Origin: Verrucomicrobiota bacterium
Lineage (GTDB): Bacteria; Verrucomicrobiota; Verrucomicrobiia; Limisphaerales; SIBH01
DNA length: 41,700 nucleotides
Reading direction: 5' to 3'
Assembly: GCA_038208765.1 (NCBI GenBank)
Contig: JBBQYK010000002.1
Span: forward strand, 1 to 41,700
The notes below the pieces were generated by a model. The model saw only the letters and a list, made by a program, of their open reading frames with translations. It made no database searches and was not told where the DNA came from. This document shows, piece by piece, positions 10,368 through 37,393 of the stretch (its first letter is position 1; each line of letters opens with the position of its first letter). The translations under genes were made by a program, and so were the position numbers.

Positions 10368-10429
10368 AAGGAAGGGCCACGGGCTTCCCGCTTCCTTGAC
10401 CCGTAAAATCTTCTTAATCGCCCCCGCCG

Positions 10430-10458: not shown

Positions 10459-10489
10459 TCCCCGGCGTTCGCCGCTCTCGGCAGACGCC

Positions 10490-11272
10490 ATGAATCTTTT
10501 TTTACGAATCTGGAGTTCAACGCTCGGCAAGAAATACATCATGGCCCTCACCGGGGCCGCGCTGCTGGTCTTCGTCGTCGGGCATCTCATCGGCAACCTG
10601 CAAGTGTTCGGACCGCCGGAACTCATCAACACCTACGCTCACTTCCTGAAGTCGAAGCCCGGCCTGCTCTGGGGAGCGCGCCTCGGCCTGCTCGCGATGG
10701 TCGCGCTGCACATCGCGGCGGCGGTGACGCTCTCGGCGGCGAACCAGGCGGCGCGGCCTGAACCCTACGCGGGCAAGTCGGCGTATGGCTCCACGGTGCA
10801 ATCGCGCTACATGCTGGTCAGCGGCTTGGTCATCGCGGCGTTCGTCGTCTATCACCTCGCGCACTTCACCGCGCTGCTGCCGGGCATCAATGGCGTCGGG
10901 GATTTCCGCAGGCTGACCACGGTGCTGCACGGCGAGACGGTGCCGGATGTTTACGCGATGATGGTGCTGGGCTTCCAGGTCTGGTGGGTCGTGCTGTTCT
11001 ACCTCGTCGCCCAAGCGTTGCTGTTCATGCACTTGAGCCACGGGGTCGCTTCGATGTTTCAATCTCTCGGCTTTCGCAATCACGTTTGGTGGCCGCGCAT
11101 TCAACTGCTCGCCAAGGTGGCCAGTCTCGCGATTTTTATCGGTTACGCGGCGATTGCCGTCGGACTTTTTATGCGAGTCGGAATTGATCCTGATTACGTG
11201 AAGAACAAGCAACGTGAGGCGCAGTCCGCCGCAGTTTCCGCCTCTGCGGTGGCGGGAAAGGAGGCCAAGTAA
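10490..11272 (+). CDS. sdhC: succinate dehydrogenase/fumarate reductase cytochrome b subunit (b558 type)
   Basis: [30 protein letters not shown]-terminus. Five hydrophobic spans with conserved His residues. Lies directly upstream of sdhA. Confidence 0.85.
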
Positions 11273-11273
11273 C

Positions 11274-13235: not shown

Positions 13236-13249
13236 GGACGAAATGCACG

Positions 13250-13274
13250 GATCACAATTTGTGATCTGTACCCG
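13250..13274. repeat. palindrome-containing 25-mer GATCACAATTTGTGATCTGTACCCG (copy 1)
   Basis: Read directly. 7-bp arms GATCACA/TGTGATC around 3 nt. Lies 15 nt after the sdhA stop. Confidence 0.9.
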
Positions 13275-13334
13275 GATCAAGGCACGAACAGAACCCTTGA
13301 AAACAAAGCCGAAAACGATTGGAGCAATTGTTCA

Positions 13335-13359
13335 GATCACAAATTGTGATCTGTACCCG
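13335..13359. repeat. palindrome-containing 25-mer GATCACAAATTGTGATCTGTACCCG (copy 2)
   Basis: Identical to copy 1 except that the central 3 nt are inverted (AAT vs ATT). Ends 6 nt before the ORF6N GTG start. Confidence 0.9.
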
Positions 13360-13364
13360 CGCGC

Positions 13365-13939
13365 GTGAGCACCCGAAAAACAACCGGCCCGCTGAGGCGG
13401 GTGGCCATTCCCGAGGCGCGCGTCACGCGCATGATTGTGCTCGTGCGCGGCCAGAAGGTGCTGCTCGACCGCGATCTTGCCGTGCTCTACGGCGTGGACA
13501 CCCGGACGCTGAACCAGGCGGTCAAGCGTCACCGCAGCCGCTTCCCGGAAGATTTCATGATCGAACTGAGCCGGAAGGAAATTCACGGACTGGCTGAACT
13601 GGCCGGCGACGCGCAGTTGAAGAAAGTGCGGGCCGTGAACGCCTTCACCGAGCAGGGCGTGGCCATGCTCTCCGGTGTGCTCAACAGTCCGCGCGCCGTG
13701 CAGGTCAACATCGCCATCATGCGCGCCTTCGTGCAACTCCGGCAGTTGCTGAACACGCACGCTGACCTGGCGCGCAAGTTGGCCGCGCTGGAGAACAAGT
13801 ACGACAAGCAATTCAAAGAAATCTTCGAGGCCATCCGCGGATTGATGACCGCACCCCCGCCGCTGACCGGCGGCGAGATGGGCTTTCACACCTTGATGCG
13901 CGGCAAGGCGGCGAAGAAAATTTCACGCAAACGATCCTC

Positions 13940-13943
<4 letters not shown>
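13365..13943 (+). CDS. ORF6N-domain (KilA-N/Bro-N-related DNA-binding) protein
   Basis: [45 protein letters not shown] and [33 protein letters not shown] match the ORF6N family pattern. GTG at 13365 (alternative ATG at 13431). The stop overlaps the sdhB ATG (ATGA). Confidence 0.8.
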
Positions 13944-14713
<770 letters not shown>

Positions 14714-14870
14714 CCGCTTGCCCCGCATCTGCCCCGAAGGCGCGGCTGTTCTCTCTCGCCAAATTGGCGCGGTCCGGCGGCGGCTTATGGGACACCGGAA
14801 AACGAAACAGGTCGGTGATGAGAAGTGCCGGCTTGCTTCCCGCAGTGCCGTGTGCCAGGGTCGCTCCCCA

Positions 14871-19654: not shown

Positions 19655-21535
19655 TTAGCGTGGTCGAGGCTTCTTCTCCGGTTCGATCACTTCATCGCAG
19701 CCGCGTTGGAACAAGTATTCCGCCATGCCGGCGTGGTGAGAATAGACATAGCATTTGTCCAGGCTTAGGAAGGCCCAGAGATTGTAATCTCCGGCCAGCG
19801 GGTGTTCGTCGTCGTAGATGGAGGCGGCCGGCTCGGGTTTTTCTTTGAGGGTCACACCGCCGTCGCCGTCGGGATCGTCGTTCTCATCCTCGTCGTCATC
19901 CTCGCGATTCCACGGAGCCTCGGGGAGGGGAGCGAGTTCACCGGGGGCAAATTCCTTGGGATCGACTTTGCCGCCGGCCTGCTTGCGAAGTTCGTAGCGG
20001 TGGAGGCGTTCGAGGTAATCTTGACGCTCTTGATGCGAGCGTTCCCATTCGGCCTCGTCGCGCTCACGATCAAACTTTTCCTGCAATTTCTTTTGCGCCT
20101 TGGTGGGTGGGGGCGGGGGCGCGGTGAGCCGGACGGTGAAGCAGACCTGGTAGTCGGGCCGGAGCCGGGCGAGACATTCGCGGATGGCCTCGATGGCGAG
20201 GGGGATTTTATCCAGGAGTCCGTAGGATTGAAACTCGATGCCGAGGGAGCGGCCCGTCGGATGAATGATGTGGGGATGAAATGTCTGCTGGTCGTGGAGG
20301 TCAAATTGCGGCGCGCCCCAGTCGCTGGTGCCGAGTTTTTTATTAATGGCGCGGCGCAGATAGCGGTTGGCCCAGCGGAGTTCACGCGCGCGCAGGCCGA
20401 TGTCGATCTGTTCCGGCTCGTCGGGCAGGCGTTGGTTTTCCCGGGCGTAGGGAATTTTATCGGTCGGCCAGGCCATAAGCCGCCACGCCGGCAGGGGACG
20501 CGGCTGCGGCAGGAGATAGAGATCGCCCCAGGAGGGCAGGCCGGCCTGAATGGCGGCGGCTTCGGTTTCCAGCATGGGATTGCCGATGATTTCCAACTCG
20601 CACAGCGCGGGCGCTTCCACGAGCGGCGCGAGGTCGCGCGGCTTGACGGGGCGCACGCGAAGCTTGTGCTGGGTGTTAAAGCACAGGAAGCGCAGGCCGG
20701 GCACGCGGGCGAGCGGGGTGACATCAATCGGCTCATGATCCTGGGCGATGAAACAGGTCAGGGCGGTGAGCTGGGTGAGCGGCTCGAAGCTCTCGGCCGG
20801 CGTGGAGAGGATGAGATTGCGCAGGCGCGGGAAGGCCTCGATGCCGTCGAGCATTTCAATGCCGCCGATGGAGAGGAATTCGCAGAGCGGCAGTTGCGGG
20901 AGATCGCGGACGTTGCGGGCCTCGAGCGGATCGCATTTCAGGCTGGCGAACTTGACCTTGGGAAAAACCGCGCGCTCGAACACGAGGAGGTTGCCTTCGA
21001 GCAGCAGTGATTCAACGGCGGGCAGATCCGAGAGTCCCTGCACGTCGGGCCAGTGCTTAAGTAATTTCAACTGGAGATCGTGCAACCCGGTGCAACGGGC
21101 AATGGGCCGCAAATCGCGGCAGGTGAAGCTGCTGAAGTGCAACGCACGCAGCCTGGGCAACTCGGCGAGTGGCGAAACGTCGGTGATCTCCGTGTGCTGC
21201 AAATGCACGGTCTCCAATTGGGGGAAAAAGCGCAGCACTTGGAGGTCGCGAATGGGGCGCTCGTCGTGCGAACAAAACTGCGACCACTCTTTGATGTCCG
21301 GGAAAACTTCGGCGCAGCGCCGGAGGGTCTGTTCGGTGTAGCGCGGATCATAGGCGGGATTGAAAGCGCGCTGGCGATCGCGCTCGGCGATGGCGTCGTA
21401 ATTGAAAGGCTCGTGGATTTTGTGGCGTGATTTCCACCGAGTCATCCCGAGCTCCAGCAACAATTCCGTGGTGTACCGTTCTTCGACGGTTCGCGCGTCA
21501 TCCAACGCCCAGGCAACAAAAGCTTCCGTGTCCAT
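19655..21535 (-). CDS. leucine-rich-repeat protein with an acidic C-terminal region, function unknown
   Basis: Trimmed to the ATG at 21535 (MDTEAFVAWALD...). Repeated LxxLxL units (LQVLRFFPQLETVHLQHTEITDVSPLAELPRLRALHF...). DDDEDENDDPDGDGG lies near the C-terminus. The antisense 402-aa ORF is Arg/Gly/Ala-rich and was rejected. Confidence 0.55.
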   Translation of the reverse strand: MDTEAFVAWALDDARTVEERYTTELLLELGMTRWKSRHKIHEPFNYDAIAERDRQRAFNPAYDPRYTEQTLRRCAEVFPDIKEWSQFCSHDERPIRDLQVLRFFPQLETVHLQHTEITDVSPLAELPRLRALHFSSFTCRDLRPIARCTGLHDLQLKLLKHWPDVQGLSDLPAVESLLLEGNLLVFERAVFPKVKFASLKCDPLEARNVRDLPQLPLCEFLSIGGIEMLDGIEAFPRLRNLILSTPAESFEPLTQLTALTCFIAQDHEPIDVTPLARVPGLRFLCFNTQHKLRVRPVKPRDLAPLVEAPALCELEIIGNPMLETEAAAIQAGLPSWGDLYLLPQPRPLPAWRLMAWPTDKIPYARENQRLPDEPEQIDIGLRARELRWANRYLRRAINKKLGTSDWGAPQFDLHDQQTFHPHIIHPTGRSLGIEFQSYGLLDKIPLAIEAIRECLARLRPDYQVCFTVRLTAPPPPPTKAQKKLQEKFDRERDEAEWERSHQERQDYLERLHRYELRKQAGGKVDPKEFAPGELAPLPEAPWNREDDDEDENDDPDGDGGVTLKEKPEPAASIYDDEHPLAGDYNLWAFLSLDKCYVYSHHAGMAEYLFQRGCDEVIEPEKKPRPR

Positions 21536-21675
21536 GGGGCCGGAGGCTGCCAGAAGCAATCGCCCGTGCCAAGTGCGGGCGCGCGGGACCTTCCATCCGG
21601 CGTAACCCCAAAAGGACACCCACCCGAGCGCGGGGCGCTTTGACTTGCCGCACCGCGCCGCCTAGCCTCGCGGGC

Positions 21676-23358: not shown

Positions 23359-25545
23359 GTGAACGCCCCGGCTCCAGCTTTGTTGCCCGTCCTCAAGCAA
23401 TACTTCGGCTTCGACTCGTTCCGTCCGTTGCAGGAGGAAATCATCCGCGACTCGCTGGCGGGCAAGGACGTGTTCGCGCTGCTGCCCACGGGCGGCGGCA
23501 AATCGCTCTGCTTCCAACTGCCCGCGCTGGTGCGGCCCGGACTCACCGTGGTCGTGTCGCCGTTGATTGCGTTGATGAAAGATCAGGTGGACGCGATGCA
23601 GGCCAGCGGCGTGGCGGCGACGTTTCTGAATTCCTCGCTCACGCCGGATGAAGGGCGCGCGCGTCTGCGCGGCCTGCATAATGGCGAGTATCGCCTGCTC
23701 TACGTCGCGCCCGAGCGCCTGATGCTCAGCGGGTTTCTCAGCGACTTGCAGCGTTGGAATGTCGCGCTCATCGCCGTGGACGAGGCGCATTGCATCAGCG
23801 AGTGGGGCCACGATTTCCGCCCGGAGTACCGGCAGATTTCCCAGTTGCGCGAGCTGTTTCCGAACGTGCCGTTCATGGCCCTCACCGCCACGGCCACGGA
23901 TCGCGTGCGCGCGGACATCGTCAAGCATCTGAAGTTGCGCGAGGCAGGTTGCTACGTCGCGAGCTTCAATCGTCCGAACCTCACCTACCGCGTCATTCCG
24001 AAGTCGGGCGCGTATGAGCAGGCGTTGGAATTCCTCCGCGCGCGGCCCGGCGAGAGCGGCATCATCTATTGCCAGAGCCGCAAGAGCGCGGAGAGCGTGG
24101 CGTCGAACTTGAACGAAGACGGCGTGAAGGCGCGACCGTATCACGCGGGTCTCGAAGCGAAAGAGCGCAGCAAGAATCAGGAATTGTTTCTCCGCGACGA
24201 GGTGCGCGTGATCTGCGCGACGATTGCCTTCGGCATGGGCATCAACAAGCCGAACGTGCGCTTCGTCATCCATCACGACCTGCCGAAGAACGTCGAGGGC
24301 TACTATCAGGAGACGGGCCGCGCGGGCCGCGACGGATTGCCGAGCGAATGCCTGCTGCTCTTCAGCGCGGGCGACGTGGTGAAGCAGCGTGGCTTCATTG
24401 ATGAGAAGCCGGAACCCGAGCGCACCATCGCCCGCGAGCAGTTGCAGCAGATGGTCCACTACGCCGAAAGCGCGGACTGCCGGCGTGCGTCGTTGCTCGA
24501 TTATTTCAGTGAAGAATTTCCCGGTGACAACTGCGGCGGCTGCGACAACTGCCTCAGTCCGCGCGAGACGTTCGACGGCACGTTGCACGCGCAGAAATTT
24601 CTCTCCTGCATTTACCGCATCCGCGAGAAGAGCACCTTCGGCGTGGGGTTGAATCACGTCATAGAAGTGCTGACCGGGTCGTCCTCCGAAAAGGTGCGGA
24701 AGTTCGGGCACGAAACGCTCTCCACCTACGGCATCGGCAAGGACGTGGGCCGCGTGGAGTGGGGCGCGATTGGCCGCGAGCTGATCCGGCTCGGCTACGC
24801 GCGGCAGGACGCGGCGCGTTTCAACGTCGTGGAACTCACCGCCGAAGGCCGCGCCGTGCTCACGCAACGCAAGTCCGTGCAACTCACCAAGCCGATGAAA
24901 GTGCCGGAGCGCCGCGAACACGCCGCGGGCGAAATCGCCTGCGACGAGGGGCTGTTCGAGCGGTTGCGCGGCTTGCGAAAACGTCTCGCGGACGAGCGCG
25001 GCGTGCCGCCTTACATCGTGTTCTCGGACGTGGCACTGCGGCAGATGGCGCGGGTGTATCCGACGAGTGAGAACGAGTTCACGCGCATCAGCGGCGTGGG
25101 TCAGGTGAAGCTGCGCGACTTCGGCGAAACCTTCATCGGGGAGATCAACAGTTTCCTCGCCAGCAACCCGCGCCAGATTTTTGCCGACGATTCCTTCGCC
25201 GCGCCGCCTCCAGCGCGCAGCCGGCTGAACGACACCGCGCGCGAGACGCTGCGCCATTTCCGCGCCGGACGCAGCGTCGAGGAAATCGCCAGGGCGCGAA
25301 TGCTCGCCTTCAGCACGATTTGCGGACACCTCACCACAGCGGCGGACGCGGGCGAAGTGATTGATCTAAATCAGTTGCTCACGACGGAGGAGCAGGAGGC
25401 GATACGCACGTCGTTCAAGAAATGCGGTTTCGGCAATCTCGTCGGCGCGCACGAATACCTTTCCGCGAAGTTCGACATGAGCCTGCTCCGCCTCTGCCGC
25501 GCGGTGCAGCAGCGTGCCCCCGGCATCCTGCCGGGTCGGGATTAA
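23359..25545 (+). CDS. recQ: ATP-dependent DNA helicase RecQ
   Basis: FGFDSFRPLQEEII, LLPTGGGKSLCFQLPA, AVDEAHCISEWGHDFRPEY, Zn-finger CRRASLLDYF...CGGCDNC, and an HRDC-like LFERLRGLRKRLADERGVPPYIVFSD, plus a further C-terminal helical domain. Confidence 0.93.
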   Translation: MNAPAPALLPVLKQYFGFDSFRPLQEEIIRDSLAGKDVFALLPTGGGKSLCFQLPALVRPGLTVVVSPLIALMKDQVDAMQASGVAATFLNSSLTPDEGRARLRGLHNGEYRLLYVAPERLMLSGFLSDLQRWNVALIAVDEAHCISEWGHDFRPEYRQISQLRELFPNVPFMALTATATDRVRADIVKHLKLREAGCYVASFNRPNLTYRVIPKSGAYEQALEFLRARPGESGIIYCQSRKSAESVASNLNEDGVKARPYHAGLEAKERSKNQELFLRDEVRVICATIAFGMGINKPNVRFVIHHDLPKNVEGYYQETGRAGRDGLPSECLLLFSAGDVVKQRGFIDEKPEPERTIAREQLQQMVHYAESADCRRASLLDYFSEEFPGDNCGGCDNCLSPRETFDGTLHAQKFLSCIYRIREKSTFGVGLNHVIEVLTGSSSEKVRKFGHETLSTYGIGKDVGRVEWGAIGRELIRLGYARQDAARFNVVELTAEGRAVLTQRKSVQLTKPMKVPERREHAAGEIACDEGLFERLRGLRKRLADERGVPPYIVFSDVALRQMARVYPTSENEFTRISGVGQVKLRDFGETFIGEINSFLASNPRQIFADDSFAAPPPARSRLNDTARETLRHFRAGRSVEEIARARMLAFSTICGHLTTAADAGEVIDLNQLLTTEEQEAIRTSFKKCGFGNLVGAHEYLSAKFDMSLLRLCRAVQQRAPGILPGRD

Positions 25546-26803: not shown

Positions 26804-26871
26804 ACTCCGCGACGCATCACATGAATCCGCTTTTACGCCCCAAACCCCTTCCGCTAACGTCCGTCCCACGC

Positions 26872-28032
26872 ATGAAAAAAGTCCGCGTCGGAATCATCGG
26901 CCTCGGCAACATCGGCAAGCACCACGCCGGTTACTTGCTCGACGGCCAGGTGCCGCGCGCGGAACTGGCCGCCGTGTGCAACACGTCGCCCGCCGCGCTC
27001 GAACCGTATGTCGGTCGTGTGCCGCACCATTTCCACGACGCGACCGCGCTGCTCACTTCCAAGACCTGCGACGCCGTCATCATCGCCACGCCGCATTACC
27101 AGCACACGGCGCTCGGACTCGCGGCCTTCGAGGCGGGCCTGCATGTGATGGTGGAGAAGCCCATTTCCGCGCACAAAGCCGACGCCGAGCGGCTCATCGC
27201 CTGCGCGCAGAAACATCCGCAGCAAGTTTTCGCCGGGATGTTTCAACTGCGTGTCGAGCCGCGCTACGCGAAGATTCAGCAGCTCATGCAAGCGGGCGAA
27301 CTCGGCACGCTCGTCCGCATCAATTGGATCATCACCGACTGGTTCCGCACCGAGGCTTACTACGCGAGCGGCGGCTGGCGCGCGACGTGGAAGGGCGAAG
27401 GCGGCGGCGTGCTGCTGAACCAATGCCTGCACCAGCTCGACGTGTTGCAATGGCTCTGCGGAATGCCGGCACGCGTGCGCGGCTTCTGCCAGATCGGTCG
27501 TTTCCACAACATCGAGGTCGAGGACAACGTGACCTGCTACCTCGAATGGGCCAACGGCGCGACCGGCGTGTTCATCTCCTCGACCGGCGAAGCGCCGGGC
27601 ACGAACCGTTTCGAGATCGTCGGCACGCGCGGCAAGCTGGTGCTCGAGAACAACAAGCTCACCTTCACACGCAACGACGCGGACATGATTGAGTTCAGTC
27701 AGGCGGCCAAGACCGGCTTCGCAAAACCCGAAACGACCACGGCGGAAATCCCGTTCGAGAACTCACCCAACGCCCACGCCGTGCTCATGCAGAATTTCAC
27801 CGACGCGATTCTCGACGGCACGCCGCTCCTCGCCCCCGGCGCGGACGGCCTCGGCTCGGTCGAACTCGCCAATGTGCTCCTCTACTCCTCGCTCCTCGAC
27901 GCCCCCGTGAAACTCCCGATGGACGGCGCAGCCTGGGAAGCCAAGCTCAACAACCTCATCACCACCTCAAAGCTGGAAAAGAAAGTCGTGAAGATCGCCA
28001 ACGACGACTTCACGAAGTCGTTTCATCGGTGA
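26872..28032 (+). CDS. Gfo/Idh/MocA-family NAD(P)-dependent oxidoreductase
   Basis: Trimmed to the ATG at 26872. Rossmann N-terminus VRVGIIGLGNIGKHHA and the EKP motif HVMVEKPIS. Confidence 0.88.
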   Translation: MKKVRVGIIGLGNIGKHHAGYLLDGQVPRAELAAVCNTSPAALEPYVGRVPHHFHDATALLTSKTCDAVIIATPHYQHTALGLAAFEAGLHVMVEKPISAHKADAERLIACAQKHPQQVFAGMFQLRVEPRYAKIQQLMQAGELGTLVRINWIITDWFRTEAYYASGGWRATWKGEGGGVLLNQCLHQLDVLQWLCGMPARVRGFCQIGRFHNIEVEDNVTCYLEWANGATGVFISSTGEAPGTNRFEIVGTRGKLVLENNKLTFTRNDADMIEFSQAAKTGFAKPETTTAEIPFENSPNAHAVLMQNFTDAILDGTPLLAPGADGLGSVELANVLLYSSLLDAPVKLPMDGAAWEAKLNNLITTSKLEKKVVKIANDDFTKSFHR

Positions 28033-28107: not shown

Positions 28108-28989
28108 TCACGTTTTCGCCCCTGGCCGACTCCGCGATAATTTCTTCTGCTCGGCTTTCAGCCGTTTCTTTTCCCGGCTCTCCACCTTCTTGATGTTCTC
28201 AGCCACCGGCAGATTCTCCGGCATCGTGCCGCCCAGTTCATGAATGGTCCGGCGAACTTTGCGGCCCACTTCGCTGTGAATCCGGTTCGCCTGATCTTTG
28301 TTCCGCACATTTTCCCGGCGCAGCTTGTCCTCGGCCTGCGTCGTGCGGAAAAGATTCGCCGCCAGTTCCAGGCTGCCCATGTGGTCGAGGACGTGTTCCT
28401 TGGCCTTGAGCCGCTTGCGCCCGTGGATGTCGCGCTGGCTCAATCCGCCATAAAGTCCGCGATACCCGTGATCCATGAAGATGGCGTAATCCACCGGCTG
28501 AATGACTCCCGATTGTTTCGCCACGCCCGCCAGATTCTTGTTGCGCCTCTTCATCTCGCCGCGCAGCAGCAACCGCTTCTGCTCTTCTTGGACGGCCTCC
28601 ACGTCGGCCAATTCCTGGCGACGTGTCTGGACGGCGAAATAACTTTGCCCCAGCGCGACGCAGGTCTTGGTGGGATCGGCGTTCTGGATCACCAGATACC
28701 CGGCGTAACGGGACAACATCACGGTTTTCACCGGACGTTGCCCGCCCTTGCCGATCCGGATCATGTCGTTGATTTCAACGAAATGATCTTCCACGCGCTG
28801 GCCGCTGTTGAAACAGGCGGCCCGTGCCTTCTCAATCACCGCCTCGAAATTGCGGTAATCCGTGTAGCCCAGCACCCGGGCAAAATCCCGGCTGGACCAG
28901 CATTCTGCTCCTGAAGGCTGAACACGCTTGATCTGTTCAAATGTGTTGCTGGTCGTGTTTGCAGGCAATGGATCGCTCATGGGTTTCAT
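28108..28989 (-). CDS. dinD: DinD/RhuM-like protein (DNA-damage-inducible protein D family)
   Basis: FEQIKRVQPSGAECWSSRDFARVLGYTDYRNFEAVIEKARAACFNSGQRVEDHFVE, VMLSRYAGYLVIQNADPTK and GQSYFAVQTRRQELAD closely follow the E. coli DinD pattern as I remember it. The ORF-track start at 28998 is TTG. The first ATG is at 28989. Confidence 0.78.
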   Translation of the reverse strand: MKPMSDPLPANTTSNTFEQIKRVQPSGAECWSSRDFARVLGYTDYRNFEAVIEKARAACFNSGQRVEDHFVEINDMIRIGKGGQRPVKTVMLSRYAGYLVIQNADPTKTCVALGQSYFAVQTRRQELADVEAVQEEQKRLLLRGEMKRRNKNLAGVAKQSGVIQPVDYAIFMDHGYRGLYGGLSQRDIHGRKRLKAKEHVLDHMGSLELAANLFRTTQAEDKLRRENVRNKDQANRIHSEVGRKVRRTIHELGGTMPENLPVAENIKKVESREKKRLKAEQKKLSRSRPGAKT

Positions 28990-29063
28990 TTTACTCAAAG
29001 CGTCCGGTCAAATGAAGAACGAGTTGTTCACACATTTTGCGCCGGAAATCCGCGATGGGCAAT

Positions 29064-32000
29064 TTAGTCCTCCGCGCCGGGGTCGCGGCCGAGGCGGTAT
29101 TTGATGTCGTAGTTCAGGATGAAATCCAATTCCTCCGCCGTGAAGCCGTAGTGCCGCGCCAGCACCCGGTCGATGTCGTCGAGAATTGATTTGGAAAGGC
29201 GTGGGTAAAACTCCTGGTAGATAATTTTGCCTGTCAGACTCGAGGTCTTTTCCTTCAGTTCGCTCTTCTCTTTGTAATCTTCCATCAGTCGTAAACACAG
29301 TTCGGCAAGGCCAGTCAGATGGGCCTTCGAGACTTTATCCAAGCTGATTGGAAACTCGTTGAGGTCGCTTGGATTCAAGTCTCGGCAGTTTGTGGTTAAA
29401 ATGAAAAACCAGTAAAAGAGAGAACTGCTCAACACAGAAATTGTCGCGTCACGGAGAATTTCAGAGGGCAAGTAAAGGTAGTTCTCCCGGCTTGAGACGG
29501 CTCGTTTTCCATCCAGTGCAAAACGGGGTTGAAAGCTGGTGAAGATTTTCCAGTACCGTCCGCCGCCGATTCGGTAAAAGATTTTGTGATTGGAGTTCCG
29601 CTCAAGACGAAGACTTAACGCGCCGTCAGCAATCATCTTCCTCAAAATTGACGCTTCGATTTCGCCTGTGAGTTTCGGGATGACATATGGCTTTGGTTTT
29701 CTTTCAACGGCGCAATAAGCCGTCCGGTCAAACAACGCAGACCTCTCCTCAGCAGCCCACTTGGTGAATCCTGTTGTGAACGTATTCGGCGAACCGCCGT
29801 GGCCCGTTCGCGCAAGGACGATGGTGAGCAGAACTTCAGCTCCGCTGAACAGTTTGCCGGGTCGTTCTGCGTAGTTGCTGAACCAAACAGAATGCGTCGC
29901 TGTCGAGATGCGGTCTTGCAGAGCTTCCATTCGCTGAGTGCAAACAGTGCTGATCGGAACGATGAATCCGAAACTGCCATGTTCCTTGATTAAATTCAGG
30001 CTTCGCTCGGAGACGAAGGCGTAAAGATTCGAGGCCTCCTTGGTGTCGTAGTTTCTGACCGTGTAGGCGGTCCGCACTTTGCTGTATTCGACATACGGCG
30101 GATTGCCGATGACGACATCGAAGCCGCCGTTCTGGATGATGCTGTTGAACTCGACATACCAGTGGAACGGCTGGTGGGACTTTCGCCACGCGGTCAGTTC
30201 CCGCGCTCCGTAATCGGTGAACAGGCTGGTGTCCAGCTTCTCGCGGATTTCATTGAGCAGGGTGCGAATTTGCTGCTTGTCCTCGCGTTGCTCCGCGATG
30301 TCGCCGGCATGTGACTGTCGCTCGCGGAACTGGCGAATCTGCCGGTCCGCTCTCTTGATGCGTTCGAGGTAGTTCCGGCCAAACATGGAGTTCTGCACTT
30401 CGGCCAGCGTGGCGTAGCCCACGAGCGTGTTGCCGGCGCAGATGTTGAAATCAATGTCCGGCAGCGGCTCAATGCCGAGGTTTTCCTTTTTGGCGTCCGG
30501 CTCGACCTGCGCGGCGAGTTTGAGGAACAGGCGCAGTTTGCAGATTTCAACCGCCTCTTCCATGAGGTCCACGCCAAAGAGGTTTTGCAGGATGATGCTT
30601 TTGTAGATGAAGTATTTCGGGCTGACGTGGCTGGCGACGTGTTCAAGCGTGCGGGCGAAGTCCTCGAATTTGCCGCCGGGCAGCAGCGGATAGCCGTGCG
30701 TGGTGAATTTCAGTTGGGCGGCCTCGTGCTTCACGGCTTCGTCCGTGAGGAAATCCGCCATGCGGTCGAGGCAGGCTTCGTAAAGTGGCTCCAGGATGTT
30801 GAGTGCGGCAAAGAGGAACGCGCCCGAACCACACGTCGGGTCGAGAATGGTCACGCGCTGGATGGCGTGCCAGAGGGCGCGGAGCAAGTCCGACCCTTCG
30901 CAGTTCTCAATCACGTCCTCCGCGAACCGGCGGATGTCGAGGTTGAGGGTGATGAGGTTGTTGATGTCGCGAACCTCGCCAGCGGTTAGTTTCGTTTTGA
31001 TTTCGTCGTGACGCTGCCGGCGGCTGACGACTTCGCGCCAGGTTTCGGTGGGTAAACGAAATTCTTCGTCGGCTTGTTTGTTCCAACCACCGCGCTTGGG
31101 CACGTCCTTGATTCCGGCCTCGATTTCCTTGGGCAGCGGAAGTTCGACGCCCTTCTTCACGGCGTCGTAGATGTAGCGGTCGGGATTTTTGGCGAGCAAA
31201 TCCCAGACGGTCGGGCCGTTGGGGTTTTCAAACGCCACTGAACATTCCCGGCGCGCGGCGTCGAACAGGAACGGGATGATGGTGTTCTTGCCGATGTAGT
31301 CGGTGATGTCCTCCTTCGTGTAATACGCCCCCATTTGTTTCTGGTTGATGTACTTCTCGAAGATGTAGCCGAGCACGTCGGGGTTGATCTCCTCCTTGTC
31401 ACCGGGCTGGCGGACGGTGCGTTCGGGATCGAGCACCCAATCATAGTGGTCGAAGTAGTCGAAGATGCGCTCGAACGCGGCGTCGGGAATCTGGATGACC
31501 GCACCGTAGCGTTCGGGCTTTTCGAGTTCGTGAACGTCGAACATGCCGCCGTTGAGGTACGGAATCTGGCCGATGAGCTTTTCGAGTTCCGCCGTCCGCT
31601 TCTTTCGGCCCAAGCCTTCGTGAAAAAGTTTGATGAGGAAGGATCGGTAGAAGGAGTGGAACTGGTTCTTGCCGCGTTGTTCGCGCACCAGATTCAGGCG
31701 CGTGCGCAGGTAGTCGCGGTCGTGGTCGAGGAAGCCCTTGTGCTGGATGAAATAGACGAACATCAGGCGGTTGAGCATGACGGACGCATACCACTCAGCA
31801 TCGCTCTTGACGGGAATGCAGTCGGCGAAGGATTTCAGGAACGCTTCGTGTTCCCGCTTGAACTGGTCGTAGAATTTCTTGGTGACGCGCTCGACATCAA
31901 GGGCCTTCTTCACGCGGCGGTTGCCTTCGCCGGGCGGGATGTTGCCCTGCGCGTCGAGTTCCGAGATGTCCACGCGCATCGCGTCGAGCTTGCTGATGAA

Positions 32001-32387
32001 CAAGTCGCCGGGCTGGCCCTTGATGTAGAGATGCGGGCGGCGATGCGACCGGCCCGCCTCGCGCTTCACCCAATACCAGAGGCTTTGCGTGCGCGCCTGG
32101 TCGGTGATGATGAGGATGTTTTCCGCAGCGAGTTTCGTCATGGCGGCATGGATGGCGGCGCGGTCACTGGCATCAGGAATCGCGCCGCCGGGCGTGGTGA
32201 TTTCAAAGACGTGGATACCAGAGAGCACGGCCACGGGCGCGCGGTGGAAACGGATGCCGCCTTTGGCCTCGGCGTCCGCAGCTTTGAGTGCGAACGGTGG
32301 ATTATTCCAGCCGAGTTCGTTGATGAACAACTTGCGGAAGTCGAAGTCTTGAAGGTGCTGCCGGGTGGCTTGGAGATTCAGAGGCAT
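29064..32387 (-). CDS. large gamma-class N6-adenine DNA methyltransferase with a C-terminal target-recognition region (COG1002/Eco57I-MmeI-PglX-like)
   Basis: Motif I ILDPTCGSGAFLFAAL and motif IV VVIGNPPYVEY. Helical region NRLMFVYFIQHKGFL and IPYLNGGMF are typical of this clade. About 330 aa follow the catalytic domain. The N-terminal roughly 130 aa are unassigned. No nuclease motif recognised. Confidence 0.85.
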   Translation of the reverse strand: MPLNLQATRQHLQDFDFRKLFINELGWNNPPFALKAADAEAKGGIRFHRAPVAVLSGIHVFEITTPGGAIPDASDRAAIHAAMTKLAAENILIITDQARTQSLWYWVKREAGRSHRRPHLYIKGQPGDLFISKLDAMRVDISELDAQGNIPPGEGNRRVKKALDVERVTKKFYDQFKREHEAFLKSFADCIPVKSDAEWYASVMLNRLMFVYFIQHKGFLDHDRDYLRTRLNLVREQRGKNQFHSFYRSFLIKLFHEGLGRKKRTAELEKLIGQIPYLNGGMFDVHELEKPERYGAVIQIPDAAFERIFDYFDHYDWVLDPERTVRQPGDKEEINPDVLGYIFEKYINQKQMGAYYTKEDITDYIGKNTIIPFLFDAARRECSVAFENPNGPTVWDLLAKNPDRYIYDAVKKGVELPLPKEIEAGIKDVPKRGGWNKQADEEFRLPTETWREVVSRRQRHDEIKTKLTAGEVRDINNLITLNLDIRRFAEDVIENCEGSDLLRALWHAIQRVTILDPTCGSGAFLFAALNILEPLYEACLDRMADFLTDEAVKHEAAQLKFTTHGYPLLPGGKFEDFARTLEHVASHVSPKYFIYKSIILQNLFGVDLMEEAVEICKLRLFLKLAAQVEPDAKKENLGIEPLPDIDFNICAGNTLVGYATLAEVQNSMFGRNYLERIKRADRQIRQFRERQSHAGDIAEQREDKQQIRTLLNEIREKLDTSLFTDYGARELTAWRKSHQPFHWYVEFNSIIQNGGFDVVIGNPPYVEYSKVRTAYTVRNYDTKEASNLYAFVSERSLNLIKEHGSFGFIVPISTVCTQRMEALQDRISTATHSVWFSNYAERPGKLFSGAEVLLTIVLARTGHGGSPNTFTTGFTKWAAEERSALFDRTAYCAVERKPKPYVIPKLTGEIEASILRKMIADGALSLRLERNSNHKIFYRIGGGRYWKIFTSFQPRFALDGKRAVSSRENYLYLPSEILRDATISVLSSSLFYWFFILTTNCRDLNPSDLNEFPISLDKVSKAHLTGLAELCLRLMEDYKEKSELKEKTSSLTGKIIYQEFYPRLSKSILDDIDRVLARHYGFTAEELDFILNYDIKYRLGRDPGAED

Positions 32388-32391
32388 GGCA

Positions 32392-35300
32392 TCAATCAGC
32401 GCGGAGTCCGAGTGAGCAGATGATTTGCGGCGGCGGGGGCGGCGCGGAATCGTCGAGGATCACGAGGCGGTTTTCGTTGCGGAGTTCGAGGACGAGTTGC
32501 GCGAGGTGTTCGGGCGGCAAGCCCTGGCGCAGTTCGCGAGCGAGCGTGTCGCGGGCGTATTCGGTGAGATGGCCCCTGAGCATTTCCTCCAGCGCGCGAG
32601 GCAGGGCTTCCAGCGGCCTGGCGAACAGCGTTCCCTCCACGCTTGCCCAATAATCCTTGAGGCGGTGGTAGGCTTTGTATTTTGGGCCGGAGCGCGATCC
32701 GAGCGCGCCGGTCATGGCGGGCTGTTCCTTCACCACAGCATCGGCGGCGATGACGACGAGTTCGTGATGATTTTCCGCTCGCGGGAGTGCGGGCGTGTCA
32801 GGCGCGCAGGCGGCGAGTTCGAGAATGGCGCGCGGGGATTCGGAGACGAGCTTGCCGGCGTTGTCCACACGGGCGAGGGCGTTCGCGCCTTCGGCGGTGC
32901 GGAGAAAGACGAGCGCGCCGGGAGTCCCGGCGGGTGGAGTGGCTTTGGCGGAGAAGACTACATCGGGCAGCGACTCGACGGCTTTTTGCAGCGCGGCGTT
33001 GTCCTTGATGGCGTCCTGCCAGATGCCGAGCGCGAAGGAGCCGAGATCAACTTCGTCATCCGAATCATCGAGGGAGCCGGATTTTTCGTTGTAGAGATCG
33101 TGCCATGCTTTCGCCTGGCCGATGTCCTCGTCGAAGAAGGTTTCATCCGTGCCGAGAATCTCCTCGCTCTGCTTGAGCCGTCCCCGCAGGCGGTTGCGGA
33201 GATTGATGATGCGATCCACGCCGTCCGCCGGCAGGAACGTGTAGCAGGTGACGGTGAGAGCTTCCTGCCCGATGCGATCCACGCGGCCCGCGCGCTGGAT
33301 GAGCCGGATGATGGCCCACGGCAAATCGAAGTTCACCACGATGGCGCAGTCCTGAAGGTTCTGGCCTTCGCTCAACACGTCGGTCGCCAGCAGCACACGC
33401 GTTTCGTCAGCGGCGGAGACGTTTTTCTTATTGCTGCATGGACTGAAAGCCCAAGCCGCCGCCGTGGGGTCGGGGTCGGTGCCCGTGACAGCACGGAGAT
33501 GCGTGATGTTTGCGGCTTCCACCTGCTTTTCGAGATACCGCACCGTGTCGGCGAACTGGGAGAAGATGAGGAGCTTCTCGTTTTTGTGTTTCTTCGAGAT
33601 GAGGTGGAGCAGCTTCTTGAGTTTGGCATCGCGGGAGTCGTCCCATTCGCCGGTCTTTTCCAAAATCGCGCGCAAAGCTTCGGCGTCGTCGCGCAGATGA
33701 CGGGCGAGTTCGTTGTTGAACAAGCCGGGGCGCACCCAGCGGAACTTGCTCTTCTGCGTGGTGGCGAGCAGTTGGTAGAGCGCGGCGGCGCGGTTGGTAA
33801 AGTCGGCTTCGGTTTTCAATGCGCCGGACGTTTGTTCAAGCGCGAGGGCGAGTTCGGATTCCTCCGCGTCGGAAACATCCAGCAGGTCGCCCAACTGCGT
33901 GCCGATGGGGAGCGGCTTCGACTGCGCGAGCGCGTGGAGCAGGATGTGGTTGCGGAGAATGTGCCGCTGCAACGACAGCAGAAACGAGTGACCGCAGCTT
34001 TCGAGGCGCTTGAAAAGATTGGTGCGGACGTAGCCGATGAGTCGCTTGCCCGCGCGGTTCAAGTCGGCCAGCACGACCTGTTCGGCATCATCGGGCGGCG
34101 GCTGTGGATTGGGGTGAAGGTATTTTTGCAAGCCGTAGCGCGGCAGATGGAGTTGACCAATGGTGTCAACGACCGTCGGCGAAAACAGGGCGGCGTATTG
34201 GTCACTCTGGTCGCTCTCATCAATGTCAAACTTGACGGTGCGCGGCTCGCGTTTGGGGAAGTAGGCGCGGCGACCGTCGGCGTAGTTGATGAAGTAGCGG
34301 TCCTTGGTTTCATCCCTTTCCGCGTAATGCTTCTCGATGAACGAGCGCGTGCGGCGGACGAGAAAGAGCCGCATCAAGTCGCGCCAGTCATCCGGGAACG
34401 GACTGGCCTGAAACGCGCGCAGCGTCTTGGGATTGATCTGGAGTTGCGCGAGGTCTTCGGCGGTGAGATCGCGCAGCCAGCGTTCCGGGCGCACGCCGAG
34501 ATCGTCATCGTCGGAAAGGAAAAGCCGGAGCTGGTTGGCGACATCGGCAAACTCCTTATTGAACGGCGTGGCCGAGAGCAACACGGTGAACTCGGTGTTT
34601 TGGGCGATGTAATTTCTGATGGCGAGGTAGCGACGACCCTCTCGATTCCGCAGATTGTGGCTTTCGTCCACGATGACGAGGCGGTGGCGGATGAGTTGCG
34701 GGAGATCTTCTATGACCTTGCCGAGCGACATCACGCGCCCCCGCAAGCCGTAGCGGTGGCGGTAGTCTTCCCACATCGGAACGAGATTGGGCGGACAGAG
34801 GATGAGTGTTTGCAGGTCGTGGCGGTCTTCCATCAGCCGTGCGAGCGCCGTGGCCATGAAGGTTTTTCCCAGGCCCACTACGTCACCAAGCAGAACGCCG
34901 CCGCGCTTTTCGAGGTGGCCGGCGGCGACCAGCACGGCAGCACGCTGGAAAGGGAAAAGCTCCTGATGAAGTTGCTTCGGCAGTTTGTAGCGGTGCTGGC
35001 TCTCGCGGGCTTCCTCGGAGAGATGCCACGCCATTTTCAGATAAACGTGGTAGGGCGAAAGCAGATCGGGACGCGCCCAACTCTGGTCAATGATGTCGGC
35101 GAGTTCGTCGGAGATGTCGAGACACCAGCGGTCGTCCCAACGGTCATTGAACCACAGCGTCAGCTTTTTTGTCGCGTCGTGGTCAAGCACGTCCACGTTC
35201 AACTCGCCCTGCGCGCTCAGACCGGAAAAGGTTAGGTTGCTGCTGCCGACGAAACCTGTGACCGGGTTATTTGGATCGGAACGAAAGCAGAGGTAAAGCT

Positions 35301-35721
35301 TGGCGTGAAGCGGGTGCGATAGAAACAACTTCACCGCGAGTTTCTTCGCACGGAGCTGGGCGGACAAACGGCGGAGTGCGGTTTCATCACCCCGCGTGGG
35401 ACAGCCCCAGGTCAGTTGATCCTTGAACGACTTCGCCGCCTGCTGGCGCATCCGGCGGGCCGTGGCGTTGTCGAGCAGTTCGCTGCGCCGCACGCGCTGC
35501 AAAGCGTCGCGAAGCTCCTCTTCCTCCAATCGCTGCATTCCGACGAGCAGGCGGCATTGGTGCCCCTCTCCGCCAAGCCACTGCTCGACGTGTTCATCAA
35601 TCGCCTTCCAACCGCGCAGATTGAAATAGCCGACGCAGAAATCAGAGCGGTCGGAACGCTCAAGAGTCTGCCGCAAAGCGGGCAGAAGCTCTTGCGCGAT
35701 ATTGTCGAAGATGCGCGGCAT
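32392..35721 (-). CDS. PLD-family (single HKD) nuclease domain fused to an SNF2-family helicase/translocase
   Basis: N-terminal HKD: LHAKLYLCFRSD...GSSNLT. SNF2 motifs GDVVGLGKTFMATA (I), LVIVDESHNLRN (II), LLSATPFNK (III), LLATDVLSEGQNLQD (V), FDLPWAIIRLIQRAGRVDRIGQ (VI). Its stop lies 4 bp before the methyltransferase ATG. Confidence 0.85.
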   Translation of the reverse strand: MPRIFDNIAQELLPALRQTLERSDRSDFCVGYFNLRGWKAIDEHVEQWLGGEGHQCRLLVGMQRLEEEELRDALQRVRRSELLDNATARRMRQQAAKSFKDQLTWGCPTRGDETALRRLSAQLRAKKLAVKLFLSHPLHAKLYLCFRSDPNNPVTGFVGSSNLTFSGLSAQGELNVDVLDHDATKKLTLWFNDRWDDRWCLDISDELADIIDQSWARPDLLSPYHVYLKMAWHLSEEARESQHRYKLPKQLHQELFPFQRAAVLVAAGHLEKRGGVLLGDVVGLGKTFMATALARLMEDRHDLQTLILCPPNLVPMWEDYRHRYGLRGRVMSLGKVIEDLPQLIRHRLVIVDESHNLRNREGRRYLAIRNYIAQNTEFTVLLSATPFNKEFADVANQLRLFLSDDDDLGVRPERWLRDLTAEDLAQLQINPKTLRAFQASPFPDDWRDLMRLFLVRRTRSFIEKHYAERDETKDRYFINYADGRRAYFPKREPRTVKFDIDESDQSDQYAALFSPTVVDTIGQLHLPRYGLQKYLHPNPQPPPDDAEQVVLADLNRAGKRLIGYVRTNLFKRLESCGHSFLLSLQRHILRNHILLHALAQSKPLPIGTQLGDLLDVSDAEESELALALEQTSGALKTEADFTNRAAALYQLLATTQKSKFRWVRPGLFNNELARHLRDDAEALRAILEKTGEWDDSRDAKLKKLLHLISKKHKNEKLLIFSQFADTVRYLEKQVEAANITHLRAVTGTDPDPTAAAWAFSPCSNKKNVSAADETRVLLATDVLSEGQNLQDCAIVVNFDLPWAIIRLIQRAGRVDRIGQEALTVTCYTFLPADGVDRIINLRNRLRGRLKQSEEILGTDETFFDEDIGQAKAWHDLYNEKSGSLDDSDDEVDLGSFALGIWQDAIKDNAALQKAVESLPDVVFSAKATPPAGTPGALVFLRTAEGANALARVDNAGKLVSESPRAILELAACAPDTPALPRAENHHELVVIAADAVVKEQPAMTGALGSRSGPKYKAYHRLKDYWASVEGTLFARPLEALPRALEEMLRGHLTEYARDTLARELRQGLPPEHLAQLVLELRNENRLVILDDSAPPPPPQIICSLGLRAD

Positions 35722-36088: not shown

Positions 36089-36188
36089 TCTCCCTCCCCA
36101 TGAATCTTCCCACAGATTCAGAGCGACCACGGAGCAGAAAGACATCCGTGGTCTTTCTGAATCCGTGGGAAAGACTTTGGTTCATGGG
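36089..36188. repeat. palindromic repeat element R1 (about 100 bp, imperfect inverted repeat)
   Basis: CCCATGAA(36097-36104)...TTCATGGG(36181-36188). The inner arms CCCACAGATTCAGAGCGACCACGG / CCGTGGTCTTTCTGAATCCGTGGG are partly complementary. The first 42 nt match R2 at 37/42. Confidence 0.8.
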
Positions 36189-36391: not shown

Positions 36392-37273
36392 ATGATTATC
36401 ACTGGCATTGGCGACGAGGCGGCGAACGGCATCGATGGACAAATCCGCGCGCATCAGGCGCTCGGGTGGAAGACCATCGAGATGCGCGGCGTGGAGGTGC
36501 CGGGGTTTGCGAAGGCGAACTTCCACGAGATTCCCGACGCGGCGTTCGACATCGCGGCGGGCAAGTTGCAGGACGCGGGGATCAGCGTGCTGTGCTTTGG
36601 CTCCACGATCATGAACTGGCAGAAGACGGTGGCGACGCCGTTCGATGTGACGCTGGGCGAAGTGAAGCGGTGCATTCCACGGATGCAGAAGCTCGGGACA
36701 AAGTTCGTGCGCGTGATGAGCTTCAAGCCGGGCGATGACGAGGCGGCGATTCCCGCCGAAGTTTTTTCGCGCGTGCGCGAGGTCACGAAGATGTTTCTCG
36801 ATGCGGGTCTCCAGCCGGTTCACGAGAACTGCATGAACTACGGCGGTATGAGCTGGCAGCACGCGCTGGAACTGCTCGATCAAGCGCCGGGACTCAAGTG
36901 GGTTTTCGACACGGCGAATCCGGTGTTCAACGCGGACCGCTCGAAGCCCAAGCCGTGGGCAAAGCAAGACGCCTTGGAGTTCTACACGCATGTGAAGCCG
37001 CACACCGTTCACGTCCACATCAAGGACGCCCGCTGGAATCCGGCGAAGAACGACGCCGACTATACGATGCCCGGCGAGGGCAGCGGCTACGTGCGCGAAT
37101 TGATCAAAGATTTGCTGGCGAGCGGCTATGACGGCGCGTTCTCCATCGAGCCACACATCGCGGTGGTCTTCCACGACGCGGCGGTCACGTCGTCCGCAGA
37201 ACAGCAGTTCCAGAGCTACGTGGATTACGGGCGGGCGCTGGAGAAGTTGATTGCCGGAGTGCGTGCGGCGTGA
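36392..37273 (+). CDS. sugar phosphate isomerase/epimerase (xylose isomerase-like TIM barrel)
   Basis: MIITGIGDEAANGIDGQIRAHQALGWKTIEMRGVEV is a typical family N-terminus. Also VHENCMNYG, VHVHIKDA, FSIEPH. Confidence 0.8.
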   Translation: MIITGIGDEAANGIDGQIRAHQALGWKTIEMRGVEVPGFAKANFHEIPDAAFDIAAGKLQDAGISVLCFGSTIMNWQKTVATPFDVTLGEVKRCIPRMQKLGTKFVRVMSFKPGDDEAAIPAEVFSRVREVTKMFLDAGLQPVHENCMNYGGMSWQHALELLDQAPGLKWVFDTANPVFNADRSKPKPWAKQDALEFYTHVKPHTVHVHIKDARWNPAKNDADYTMPGEGSGYVRELIKDLLASGYDGAFSIEPHIAVVFHDAAVTSSAEQQFQSYVDYGRALEKLIAGVRAA

Positions 37274-37314: not shown

Positions 37315-37393
37315 TCTCCCTCCCCATGAACTTTCCCACGGATTCAGAACGGCCACCGATGCTGCCTGATTCGTGGTCGCTCGGAATTTGTGG
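37315..37393. repeat. palindromic repeat element R2 (same family as R1)
   Basis: TCTCCCTCCCCATGAACTTTCCCACGGATTCAGAACGGCCAC (37315-37356) matches 36089-36130 at 37/42. The second arm TGATTCGTGGTCGCTCGGAATTTGTGG is partly complementary. Confidence 0.8.

Follow-up and report, generated by a model that had tools for sequence, protein, structure and literature searches.

A gene pair for a PLD-Snf2 protein and a BrxX-like adenine methylase as a candidate two-gene restriction-modification-like defence cassette

Related defence systems and the locus

We analysed a stretch of 41,700 nucleotides (nt) of contig JBBQYK010000002.1 from a Verrucomicrobiota bacterium (termed the window; positions count from its first letter). 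Its minus strand carries two adjacent genes, one for a protein that fuses a phospholipase D (PLD) domain to an Snf2 motor (PLD-Snf2 protein, or helicase) and one for an adenine DNA methyltransferase (methylase). Parts of this pair recall several described systems. By effector layout the nearest is MANTIS (Gao_RL / Gao_29; a Type-2 DUF499-centred BREX-related system), whose subunit MtsD likewise consists of an N-terminal PLD nuclease with a single HKD motif followed by a superfamily 2 (SF2)/Snf2-type ATPase. The best PADLOC match of the PLD-Snf2 protein is the corresponding 'HKD+Snf2' model (C3a139, 145 bits), followed by DrmD (126 bits). The comparison with MtsD is one of layout and of partial profile matches, namely those to C3a139 and to NCBIfam NF042964 ('phospholipD_antiphage'; 141.8 bits versus a cut-off of 1100). 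MANTIS is, however, defined by the DUF499 AAA+ protein MtsA and the DUF3780 protein MtsB (PMC12839542; MANTIS preprint). In this four-gene system the AAA+ MtsA and the small MtsB (DUF3780/3870) load and activate the methylase, whereas neither gene is found in the window or in the 160 related loci of our gene-content census, for which greedily called open reading frames (ORFs) were clustered. The MANTIS methylase differs as well from the BrxX/Eco57I-type enzyme encoded here.

By parts list the nearest system is class 1 DISARM (DrmA, DrmB, DrmC, DrmD and DrmMI). It also combines an Snf2 helicase (DrmD, matched by our protein at 126-137 bits), an Eco57I-type methylase (DrmMI, matched at 70 bits) and a PLD nuclease (DrmC). 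But the DrmA and DrmB (DUF1998) core is absent here, and PLD and Snf2, which are separate proteins in DISARM, are fused; both points had been made in an earlier note on this DNA, and they are borne out by Pfam searches and by the census of the window and the 160 loci. By methylase fold, finally, the nearest relative is PglX/BrxX of BREX type 1, which has the same order of N-terminal domain (NTD), helical domain, gamma-class methylase domain and recognition domain. The GAAGGC motif assigned to an orthologue of our methylase (see below) is also an asymmetric 6-mer of the BREX kind. In contrast to BREX type 1, PglZ, BrxC, BrxL, BrxA and BrxB are absent from the window and none is conserved in related loci, and the partner of the methylase is a nuclease-motor.

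By logic the pair comes closest to Type III restriction-modification (R-M) systems such as EcoP15I Mod/Res, which have two genes, specificity on the methylase and a partner that joins an SF2 ATPase to a nuclease. Type III methylases carry the specificity and hemimethylate an asymmetric site. Their Mod subunit is a beta-class dimer and their Res subunit is Rad25-like with a C-terminal PD-(D/E)xK nuclease, whereas here we find a gamma-class, monomer-type methylase and an N-terminal PLD domain on an Snf2 motor. We rejected both BREX and Type III as identities of the pair, since the partner genes are absent, the PglX cut-off is missed and the methylase is gamma- rather than beta-class. Three further comparisons concern single proteins. 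Type IIG / IIL enzymes (Eco57I, MmeI, DrdV) have the same methylase plus recognition-domain architecture and Pfam families, but the NTD of our methylase has no conserved nuclease residues and the protein is paired with a separate nuclease-motor gene. Type ISP enzymes (LlaGI/LlaBIII) bring nuclease, SF2 motor, gamma-methylase and recognition domain together in one polypeptide with an Mrr nuclease, whereas two genes with PLD on the motor are used here. SauUSI (Type IV), like the first gene product, joins a PLD domain to an SF2 motor. SauUSI acts as a dimer with one active site, is modification-dependent, has an SRA domain and lacks a methylase.

Taken over all systems, partner genes of DISARM, BREX, Type I or Type III were found neither in the window nor in the 160 related loci, and the same holds for DrmA/B, PglZ/BrxC/BrxL and DUF499/DUF3780 genes. 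The earlier note had stated that the locus matches no canonical R-M, BREX or DISARM gene set. With respect to partner genes this is correct, but the methylase matches a named, REBASE-derived 'Type IIG' model (PDLC03628) from end to end. The three ORFs of interest are:

32392..35721, minus strand: PLD(HKD)-Snf2 protein with a C-terminal domain (CTD), 1109 amino acids (aa), from ORF and translation; predicted ATP-dependent nuclease effector
29064..32387, minus strand: BrxX/PglX-like gamma-class N6-adenine DNA methyltransferase, 1107 aa; predicted modification and specificity subunit
28108..28998, minus strand: dinD (DNA-damage-inducible protein D / Bro-N family), 296 aa; TTG start, NF008573 match

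ORF calling places these co-directional genes exactly where the earlier note had them. The methylase gene begins 4 nt past the helicase stop codon. The distance from the methylase gene to dinD is 65 nt to the TTG start and ~74 nt to the first ATG, which lies three codons in. The two large ORFs are not chance ORFs, because each product has more than 8000 database homologues. Thousands of these are full-length, under names such as 'helicase-related protein', 'NgoFVII family restriction endonuclease', 'PLD-like domain-containing protein' or 'Eco57I methylase domain protein'. We consider that the first two genes probably constitute a self-contained, two-gene, ATP-dependent, hemimethylation-guarded R-M-like defence cassette. 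In substance this agrees with how the earlier note had interpreted them, but not with its inclusion of dinD.

Conservation of the gene pair and of its two products

We scanned 185,579 species-representative genomes, one per species, by exact peptides. The helicase-anchored scan returned at least 574 species genomes, from which 80 loci were kept, and the methylase-anchored scan at least 587; in the latter we counted the 72 loci whose upstream DNA extends over 1.5 kb or more. Starting from the helicase, about 74/75 loci with enough DNA have the methylase as their next conserved gene, downstream and in the same orientation (exceptions: L018 and L027; L numbers denote related loci). Starting from the methylase, the helicase lies upstream on the same strand in 67/72 loci. 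Overall, the cognate methylase accompanies the helicase in 93-99% of loci. The gap between the genes has a median of 10.5 nt over 106 unique pairs, and 63/106 pairs overlap or are separated by at most 20 nt. Thus, the PLD-Snf2 and methylase genes are near-obligate, tightly coupled neighbours across many phyla, in a constant order, and the check for co-occurrence as adjacent pairs that the earlier note had proposed comes out positive. Methylase loci without a helicase in the 6 kb upstream do occur (L110, L118, L126, L127, L154) and may be orphan or decayed versions; L110 (Dolichospermum planctonicum) has two tandem methylase copies at 6001-12969 in place of the helicase.

The 80 kept loci come from Acidobacteriota, Nitrospirota, Chloroflexota, Planctomycetota, Verrucomicrobiota, Proteobacteria, Bacteroidota, Bacillota, Armatimonadota, Poribacteria, Latescibacterota and others. 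Archaeal homologues include a Methanosarcinales protein, and Haloferax appears among the plasmid matches; plasmid-borne homologues are also present in cyanobacteria and actinobacteria. No full-length homologue was found in 50,697 phage records. The distribution is patchy and resembles that of horizontally transferred genes. Moreover, the pair moves as a cassette, since close relatives (82-89% helicase identity to the window) lie in unrelated contexts, some of them beside genes for a tyrosine integrase and primase-like proteins. In these latter cases (L165/L166 681-5463 and L168 919-5079) the pair is found a few kb from the tyrosine integrase and DUF5906/BT4734-like (primase-type) genes and appears to be cargo of an integrative element.

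The PLD-Snf2 protein contains the Pfam domains PLDc_2, RE_NgoFVII, SNF2-rel_dom and Helicase_C, with a marginal ResIII match at 23 bits. Its NCBIfam match to DrmD (NF038317) scores 137.4 bits, compared to a cut-off of 610. The following features were read from its translation or defined by phmmer (CTD):

35230..35307, minus strand: single HKD motif, HAKLYLCFRSD...GSSNLT, aa 139-164 (H139, K141, D149, G159-S-S-N162-L-T)
34861..34875, minus strand: Snf2 motif I / Walker A, GLGKT, aa 283-287
34657..34668, minus strand: Snf2 motif II, DESH, aa 352-355
33265..33297, minus strand: Snf2 motif VI, QRAGRVDRIGQ, aa 809-819
32395..33141, minus strand: family-specific CTD, aa 861-1109 (last 249 aa)

The SAT motif is at aa 383-385, and HxK occurs only once in the whole protein, at the HKD motif. 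All motifs quoted for the two large proteins in the earlier note are present in the translations. Residue conservation was computed over 89 helicase-methylase pairs. Of the HKD residues, H139, G159, S160 and N162 are conserved in 89/89, K141 in 88/89 and D149 in 85/89; the Snf2 residues K286, D352, E353, R810 and R813 are conserved in 89/89. A phmmer search of 1.84 billion representatives with the CTD yielded 538 clusters (50% identity) at E<=1e-3, and among the matches listed it forms the extreme C-terminus of full-length proteins of ~1040-1250 aa. Among solved structures no close relative is found by sequence, the best being RapA (E ~3e-10). Foldseek searches with an AlphaFold2 model returned RapA, SRCAP/SWR1, CSB and SauUSI (7clg). 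This ranking backs only the description as an Snf2 motor and SauUSI-like PLD-helicase, not a detailed fold. An MtsD-like structure was considered for the protein and rejected, the model being too poor to carry a claim about the detailed fold.

The methylase matches the Pfam families Eco57I (94.8 bits) and MmeI_Mtase and no nuclease family. Its motifs follow the order X (GAYYT, aa 353), I (DPTCGSGAF, aa 516) and IV (NPPY, aa 762), with a variable C-terminus behind them, which is the order of a gamma-class adenine methyltransferase, as the earlier note had it. The PADLOC model REase_MTase_IIG (PDLC03628) aligns at 1058 bits, aa 1-1102 on model positions 1-1097/1100. In contrast, the match to PADLOC DrmMI is confined to a partial region (69.8 bits), and the one to NCBIfam BREX-1 PglX (NF033452) reaches 68.9 bits versus a cut-off of 500. 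Its parts are:

31278..32387, minus strand: conserved N-terminal module, aa 1-370 (beta-rich NTD, 1-165, and the first part of the helical domain); candidate coupling interface
30816..30842, minus strand: S-adenosylmethionine-binding motif I, DPTCGSGAF, aa 516-524 (D516 and G520 89/89)
30093..30104, minus strand: catalytic motif IV, NPPY, aa 762-765 (N762, P763 and P764 89/89; Y/W765 89/89)
29208..30077, minus strand: hypervariable target-recognition region, aa 771-1060 (identity 0.29)

The AlphaFold2 model of the methylase has a mean predicted local distance difference test score (pLDDT) of 84.7 and a predicted template modelling score (pTM) of 0.79. Its best full-length Foldseek matches are the BrxX/PglX structures 9ewz, 8q56 and 8c45 (E ~1e-13 to 1e-15), followed by CamA, DrdV, LlaBIII (4xqk) and MmeI. 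By this model, the fold is closest to BrxX/PglX. Sequence searches of solved structures find no close relative here either, BrxX being the best match (E ~3e-6).

The methylase regions differ in how far they co-vary with the helicase, as measured by Mantel correlation:

NTD, aa 1-165: mean pairwise identity 0.44; Mantel r versus helicase 0.65, p=0.002
Helical domain, aa 166-500: mean pairwise identity 0.63; Mantel r versus helicase 0.43
Catalytic domain, aa 501-770: mean pairwise identity 0.60; Mantel r versus helicase 0.37
Recognition region, aa 771-1060: mean pairwise identity 0.29; Mantel r versus helicase 0.03, not significant

Of the four regions, the NTD follows the helicase most closely, whereas the recognition region varies independently of it. 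In the Lacunisphaera loci L162/L164, the helicase is 82% identical to that of the window, while aa 1-370 of the methylase are 56% and the remainder only 26% identical (L162 methylase, 11336-14980). The same pattern of a kept N-terminus and a swapped body recurs in L002, L003, L038, L053, L063, L064 and L079. An N-terminal module of ~370 aa therefore stays with the helicase while the body, consisting of methylase and recognition domain, is exchanged. Because it is kept in this way, we infer from the sequence comparisons that the module may be the coupling interface to the PLD-Snf2 protein. When just the NTD was used to search a 5.8-billion-protein set, all matches were fragments of this same family at contig ends, so that the search is uninformative on other architectures. 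In L021, L037, L061 and L070 the methylase frame is broken at ~aa 895-1000 by 1.4-2.7 kb of extra DNA, after which it resumes, and a database homologue (P0194, 1350 aa) bears an IS200-like Y1 transposase Pfam domain; these cases are possible mobile-element insertion or inactivation events in the recognition region.

The end-to-end PDLC03628 match raises the alternative that the methylase is a complete Type IIG enzyme with an N-terminal nuclease of its own, the PLD-Snf2 protein then being separate or auxiliary, for example as a SauUSI-like Type IV or back-up nuclease. The overall MmeI/DrdV-like architecture, the mixed alpha/beta topology of the NTD, which could be a degenerate PD-(D/E)XK fold, and the Foldseek match of the helicase to SauUSI would all fit. 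We nevertheless regard this alternative as unlikely. No invariant D...(D/E)xK triad exists in the NTD across alignments of 68 and 89 homologues, and the pattern D-x(5-20)-[DE]-x-K is absent from aa 1-170 of the window methylase, which has V54/L55 at the positions where most homologues have E/Q-K. The earlier note, which had seen no nuclease motif in this protein, was right. Furthermore, the best structural matches are to the non-nuclease BrxX/PglX rather than to MmeI, the genes are near-obligately paired in both directions at translational-coupling distances, and the NTD co-varies with the helicase. Regarding a SauUSI-like role, Pfam searches found no SRA or other modified-base reader domain in the helicase, and a modification-dependent nuclease beside an active methylase would risk self-cleavage. 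The label 'Type IIG' is doubtful, since the defining nuclease residues are absent, and the family is probably catalogued under a wrong name. Consistent with this, PglX proteins, formerly 'Type IIG' in REBASE, are by now listed there as plain methyltransferases (PMC12707154), and M.Ssp6803IV likewise bears a methyltransferase name (PMC6105098).

M.Ssp6803IV links the family to published methylome work. Plasmid pSYSX of Synechocystis PCC 6803 (L081) encodes WP_011153866, a 'helicase-related protein', followed by a small ORF and VapC and then by WP_011153869, a 'DNA methyltransferase'. The latter is slr6050 (M.Ssp6803IV), which aligns with the window methylase over the full length at 47% identity. 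Hagemann et al. assigned to slr6050 the asymmetric motif GA(m6A)GGC, by elimination and from REBASE, and called the gene essential, as its knockout would not segregate; the upstream helicase is not mentioned (PMC6105098). A methylase gene that resists deletion is the phenotype expected if an active cognate nuclease is present, and with the pair's gene content in view slr6050 would fit. The complement of GAAGGC contains no adenine, and hence only one strand can be marked. By analogy, such a mark would match the hemimethylation seen in BREX, Type III and MANTIS. Directly downstream of slr6050 (L081 16924-19545) are genes for a DUF6527 protein, a ThiF/E1-like adenylyltransferase, an E2/UBC protein and a multiubiquitin-domain protein, and this cluster is followed by a helix-turn-helix (HTH) and ImmA/IrrE pair, which suggests that this part of pSYSX is a local defence-rich region.

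Neighbouring genes, dinD and the window flanks

The widespread families among the 160 related loci are the helicase (140 loci), the methylase (136) and a DprA-like/SLOG protein of ~210 aa; no further gene family occurs in more than 7/160. In 40/94 unique loci (e.g., L048:15476-16117, plus strand, and L041:16221-16856, plus strand) the DprA-like gene follows the methylase gene in the same orientation, at a distance of 0-5.4 kb. Its product contains PF02481 and is similar to the antitoxins PsyrA (PADLOC match of 54-71 bits) and ShosA (weak match). It is thus a frequent, optional third gene of the module, which is absent from the window. Small genes are inserted between helicase and methylase in 35/106 pairs, mostly MazE/AbrB and PIN (VapC) toxin-antitoxin genes or PDDEXK_3 (e.g., L047:11455-11706, L060:12102-12581, L042:11508-11894 and L081 12487-13120). 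In ~9 loci HTH_17/AlpA-like small genes are found directly upstream of the helicase.

The earlier note had called the third gene of the window DinD/RhuM-like, ~70 bp from the methylase gene, and this identification is confirmed. The product contains a Bro-N domain (Pfam) and exceeds the cut-off of the NCBIfam DinD equivalog NF008573 (381.6 versus 242 bits; aa 14-286 on model positions 7-283/288). It also matches the PADLOC candidate PDC-S13 and a Type I specificity-subunit model. Could dinD be the functional third component of a three-gene operon, for example as a regulator or a RecA modulator? Its strand, its position ~65-75 nt downstream in the same low-GC stretch and the two PADLOC matches would be in line with such a role, as would the enrichment of RhuM-family genes beside R-M genes (Milman 2023) and the RhuM-like genes seen in 4 of the 160 related loci. 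The role is nonetheless improbable. Only 1/160 related loci contains dinD itself, the nearest relatives (82-89% helicase identity), including L162-L168, lack it, and the commonest third gene is instead the DprA-like one. Strand and spacings were given correctly in the earlier note, but a single three-gene operon is at most putative and dinD is no conserved partner. We regard dinD as a mere neighbour that shares the low-GC stretch with the module without belonging to it.

Across dinD and the methylase gene (28-32 kb) the GC content drops to 0.51-0.59, compared to ~0.63 (0.62-0.65) in the flanks, and is lowest in the 3' part of the methylase gene, which encodes the recognition domain. The dip is consistent with acquired DNA. 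We searched for direct repeats flanking the module that would delimit an island and found none, and no tRNA genes were found in the window. The other genes examined in the window are:

19655-21619, minus strand: 654-aa ORF whose sole Pfam match is a leucine-rich repeat; no evident tie to the module
23359-25545, plus strand: RecQ helicase with a C-terminal HTH_40 domain; no evident tie to the module
26821-28032: GFO/IDH/MocA oxidoreductase, flank gene
36392-37273: xylose-isomerase-like TIM-barrel protein, flank gene

Further flank genes encode a DUF4380 protein, SecDF and YajC. Palindromic repeats of ~80-85 nt are found on either side of the TIM-barrel gene, at 36089-36173 and 37315-37393. The two copies are direct and 87% identical, and their arms are 86-90% complementary; they look like a REP/MITE-type intergenic element, unrelated to island boundaries. 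A promoter and terminator scan yielded nothing over shuffle expectation.

Proposed mechanism, remaining alternatives and significance

We infer a mechanism in which the N-terminus of the methylase couples the two proteins physically, and in which the PLD-Snf2 protein dimerises, translocates and cleaves DNA in a manner that depends on site orientation. The swappable C-terminal recognition domain of the methylase would read a short asymmetric DNA site and be the sole specificity factor. On host DNA the methylase would mark self by modifying one adenine on one strand. At unmethylated sites of incoming DNA it would instead recruit or license the PLD-Snf2 protein via its N-terminal module. PLD nucleases such as Nuc, BfiI and SauUSI build one active site from a dimer. 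Because each chain has one HKD half-site, the PLD-Snf2 protein would have to dimerise to form one nuclease active site, as do BfiI, SauUSI and MtsD. The last of these, also a PLD-SF2 protein, is a dimer by cryo-EM and is needed for restriction in vivo (bioRxiv 10.64898/2026.09.23.753747). The Snf2 motor would move along double-stranded DNA, burning ATP, and cleavage would probably be set off by collision or communication between sites, as in Type III, Type ISP and MANTIS. Such inter-site communication would keep hemimethylated self DNA safe after replication. For the window pair we thus predict restriction and site-specific methylation. It is quite possible that the pair represents a minimal system of the BREX/DISARM/MANTIS world and a widespread R-M class of its own. 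A dedicated N-terminal adaptor of ~370 aa would then allow the BrxX-type methylase to license a dimeric PLD-Snf2 motor-nuclease directly, with no need for an AAA+ loader, PglZ or DrmA/B.

Several points weigh against a two-gene restriction cassette. Restriction, phage defence and nuclease activity are predicted only, and this applies to every member of the family. Even for MtsD, nuclease activity has not yet been seen in vitro (bioRxiv 10.64898/2026.09.23.753747). The structural matches of the PLD-Snf2 protein are weak, because its model is of low confidence (pLDDT 66, pTM 0.47). Co-variation of NTD and helicase could also stem from the shared inheritance of adjacent genes, and in 5/72 methylase loci there is no helicase within 6 kb upstream, meaning that the methylase can persist alone. 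As to Synechocystis, GAAGGC was assigned to slr6050 by elimination, and the essentiality of the gene was not tied to the helicase by the authors and may have another cause. Finally, the earlier note had proposed to look for defence islands, but the window copy is flanked by housekeeping or metabolic genes and does not lie in such an island.

The housekeeping surroundings would also suit a non-cleaving function, that is, a BREX-like exclusion system or an epigenetic or regulatory device in which a RapA-like motor clears DNA-bound proteins to give the methylase access. The top matches of the motor by sequence and fold are RapA and chromatin remodellers, and the methylase resembles BrxX, BREX being able to restrict without evident cleavage (PMC12707154). 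We consider this quite improbable, as the HKD residues are invariant or nearly so, which argues for an active site that is in use. In addition, the hypervariable recognition domain, carriage on plasmids and integrative elements and patchy phyletic spread are hallmarks of defence, and toxin-antitoxin and other defence genes are commonly found within or beside the pair. Highly improbable is a decayed remnant of class 1 DISARM or of MANTIS / Type-2 BR that has lost the core genes and no longer functions as such: there are weak but significant profile matches to DrmD, DrmMI, Gao_RL 'HKD+Snf2' and NCBIfam 'phospholipD_antiphage', but the scores are far below the cut-offs (DrmD 137 versus 610, PglX 68.9 versus 500, NF042964 141.8 versus 1100), over 100 independent loci have this same two-gene content without DrmA/B or DUF499/DUF3780, neither gene is disrupted and their active-site residues are under purifying selection, and on the 160 loci checked DrmA/DrmB or DUF499/DUF3780 genes were not seen to flank the members.

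A table of Milman et al. 2023 has an entry for the gene pair, which is neither named nor analysed there. Our literature search, whose coverage mostly left out subscription journals, found no name for it and no functional study. The earlier note had called the module poorly characterised, which is right in this sense but overlooks the Milman 2023 entry, the 'Type IIG' model and the motif of slr6050. The pair apparently represents a widespread, unnamed kind of ATP-dependent, methylation-guarded restriction, which is catalogued but mislabelled. If the two-gene cassette is real, a common system, present in at least ~580 of 185,579 species-representative genomes, has been missed or mislabelled. In PADLOC the methylase counts as a lone 'Type IIG' enzyme, and the pair is not covered by any system-level model; a family of REBASE-derived 'Type IIG' annotations would then be subunits of this two-gene system. 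Two proteins would do the work for which BREX, DISARM and MANTIS need four to six, and would offer a two-protein model for how PglX-type methylases convert the recognition of an unmethylated site into an effector response. The pair would also be a tractable case in which to study what makes hemimethylated asymmetric sites safe. With an exchangeable recognition domain carried on a conserved adaptor, its specificity appears open to engineering. Finally, the pSYSX pair provides a testable explanation for the 'essentiality' of slr6050 and may matter for transformation barriers in Synechocystis PCC 6803.

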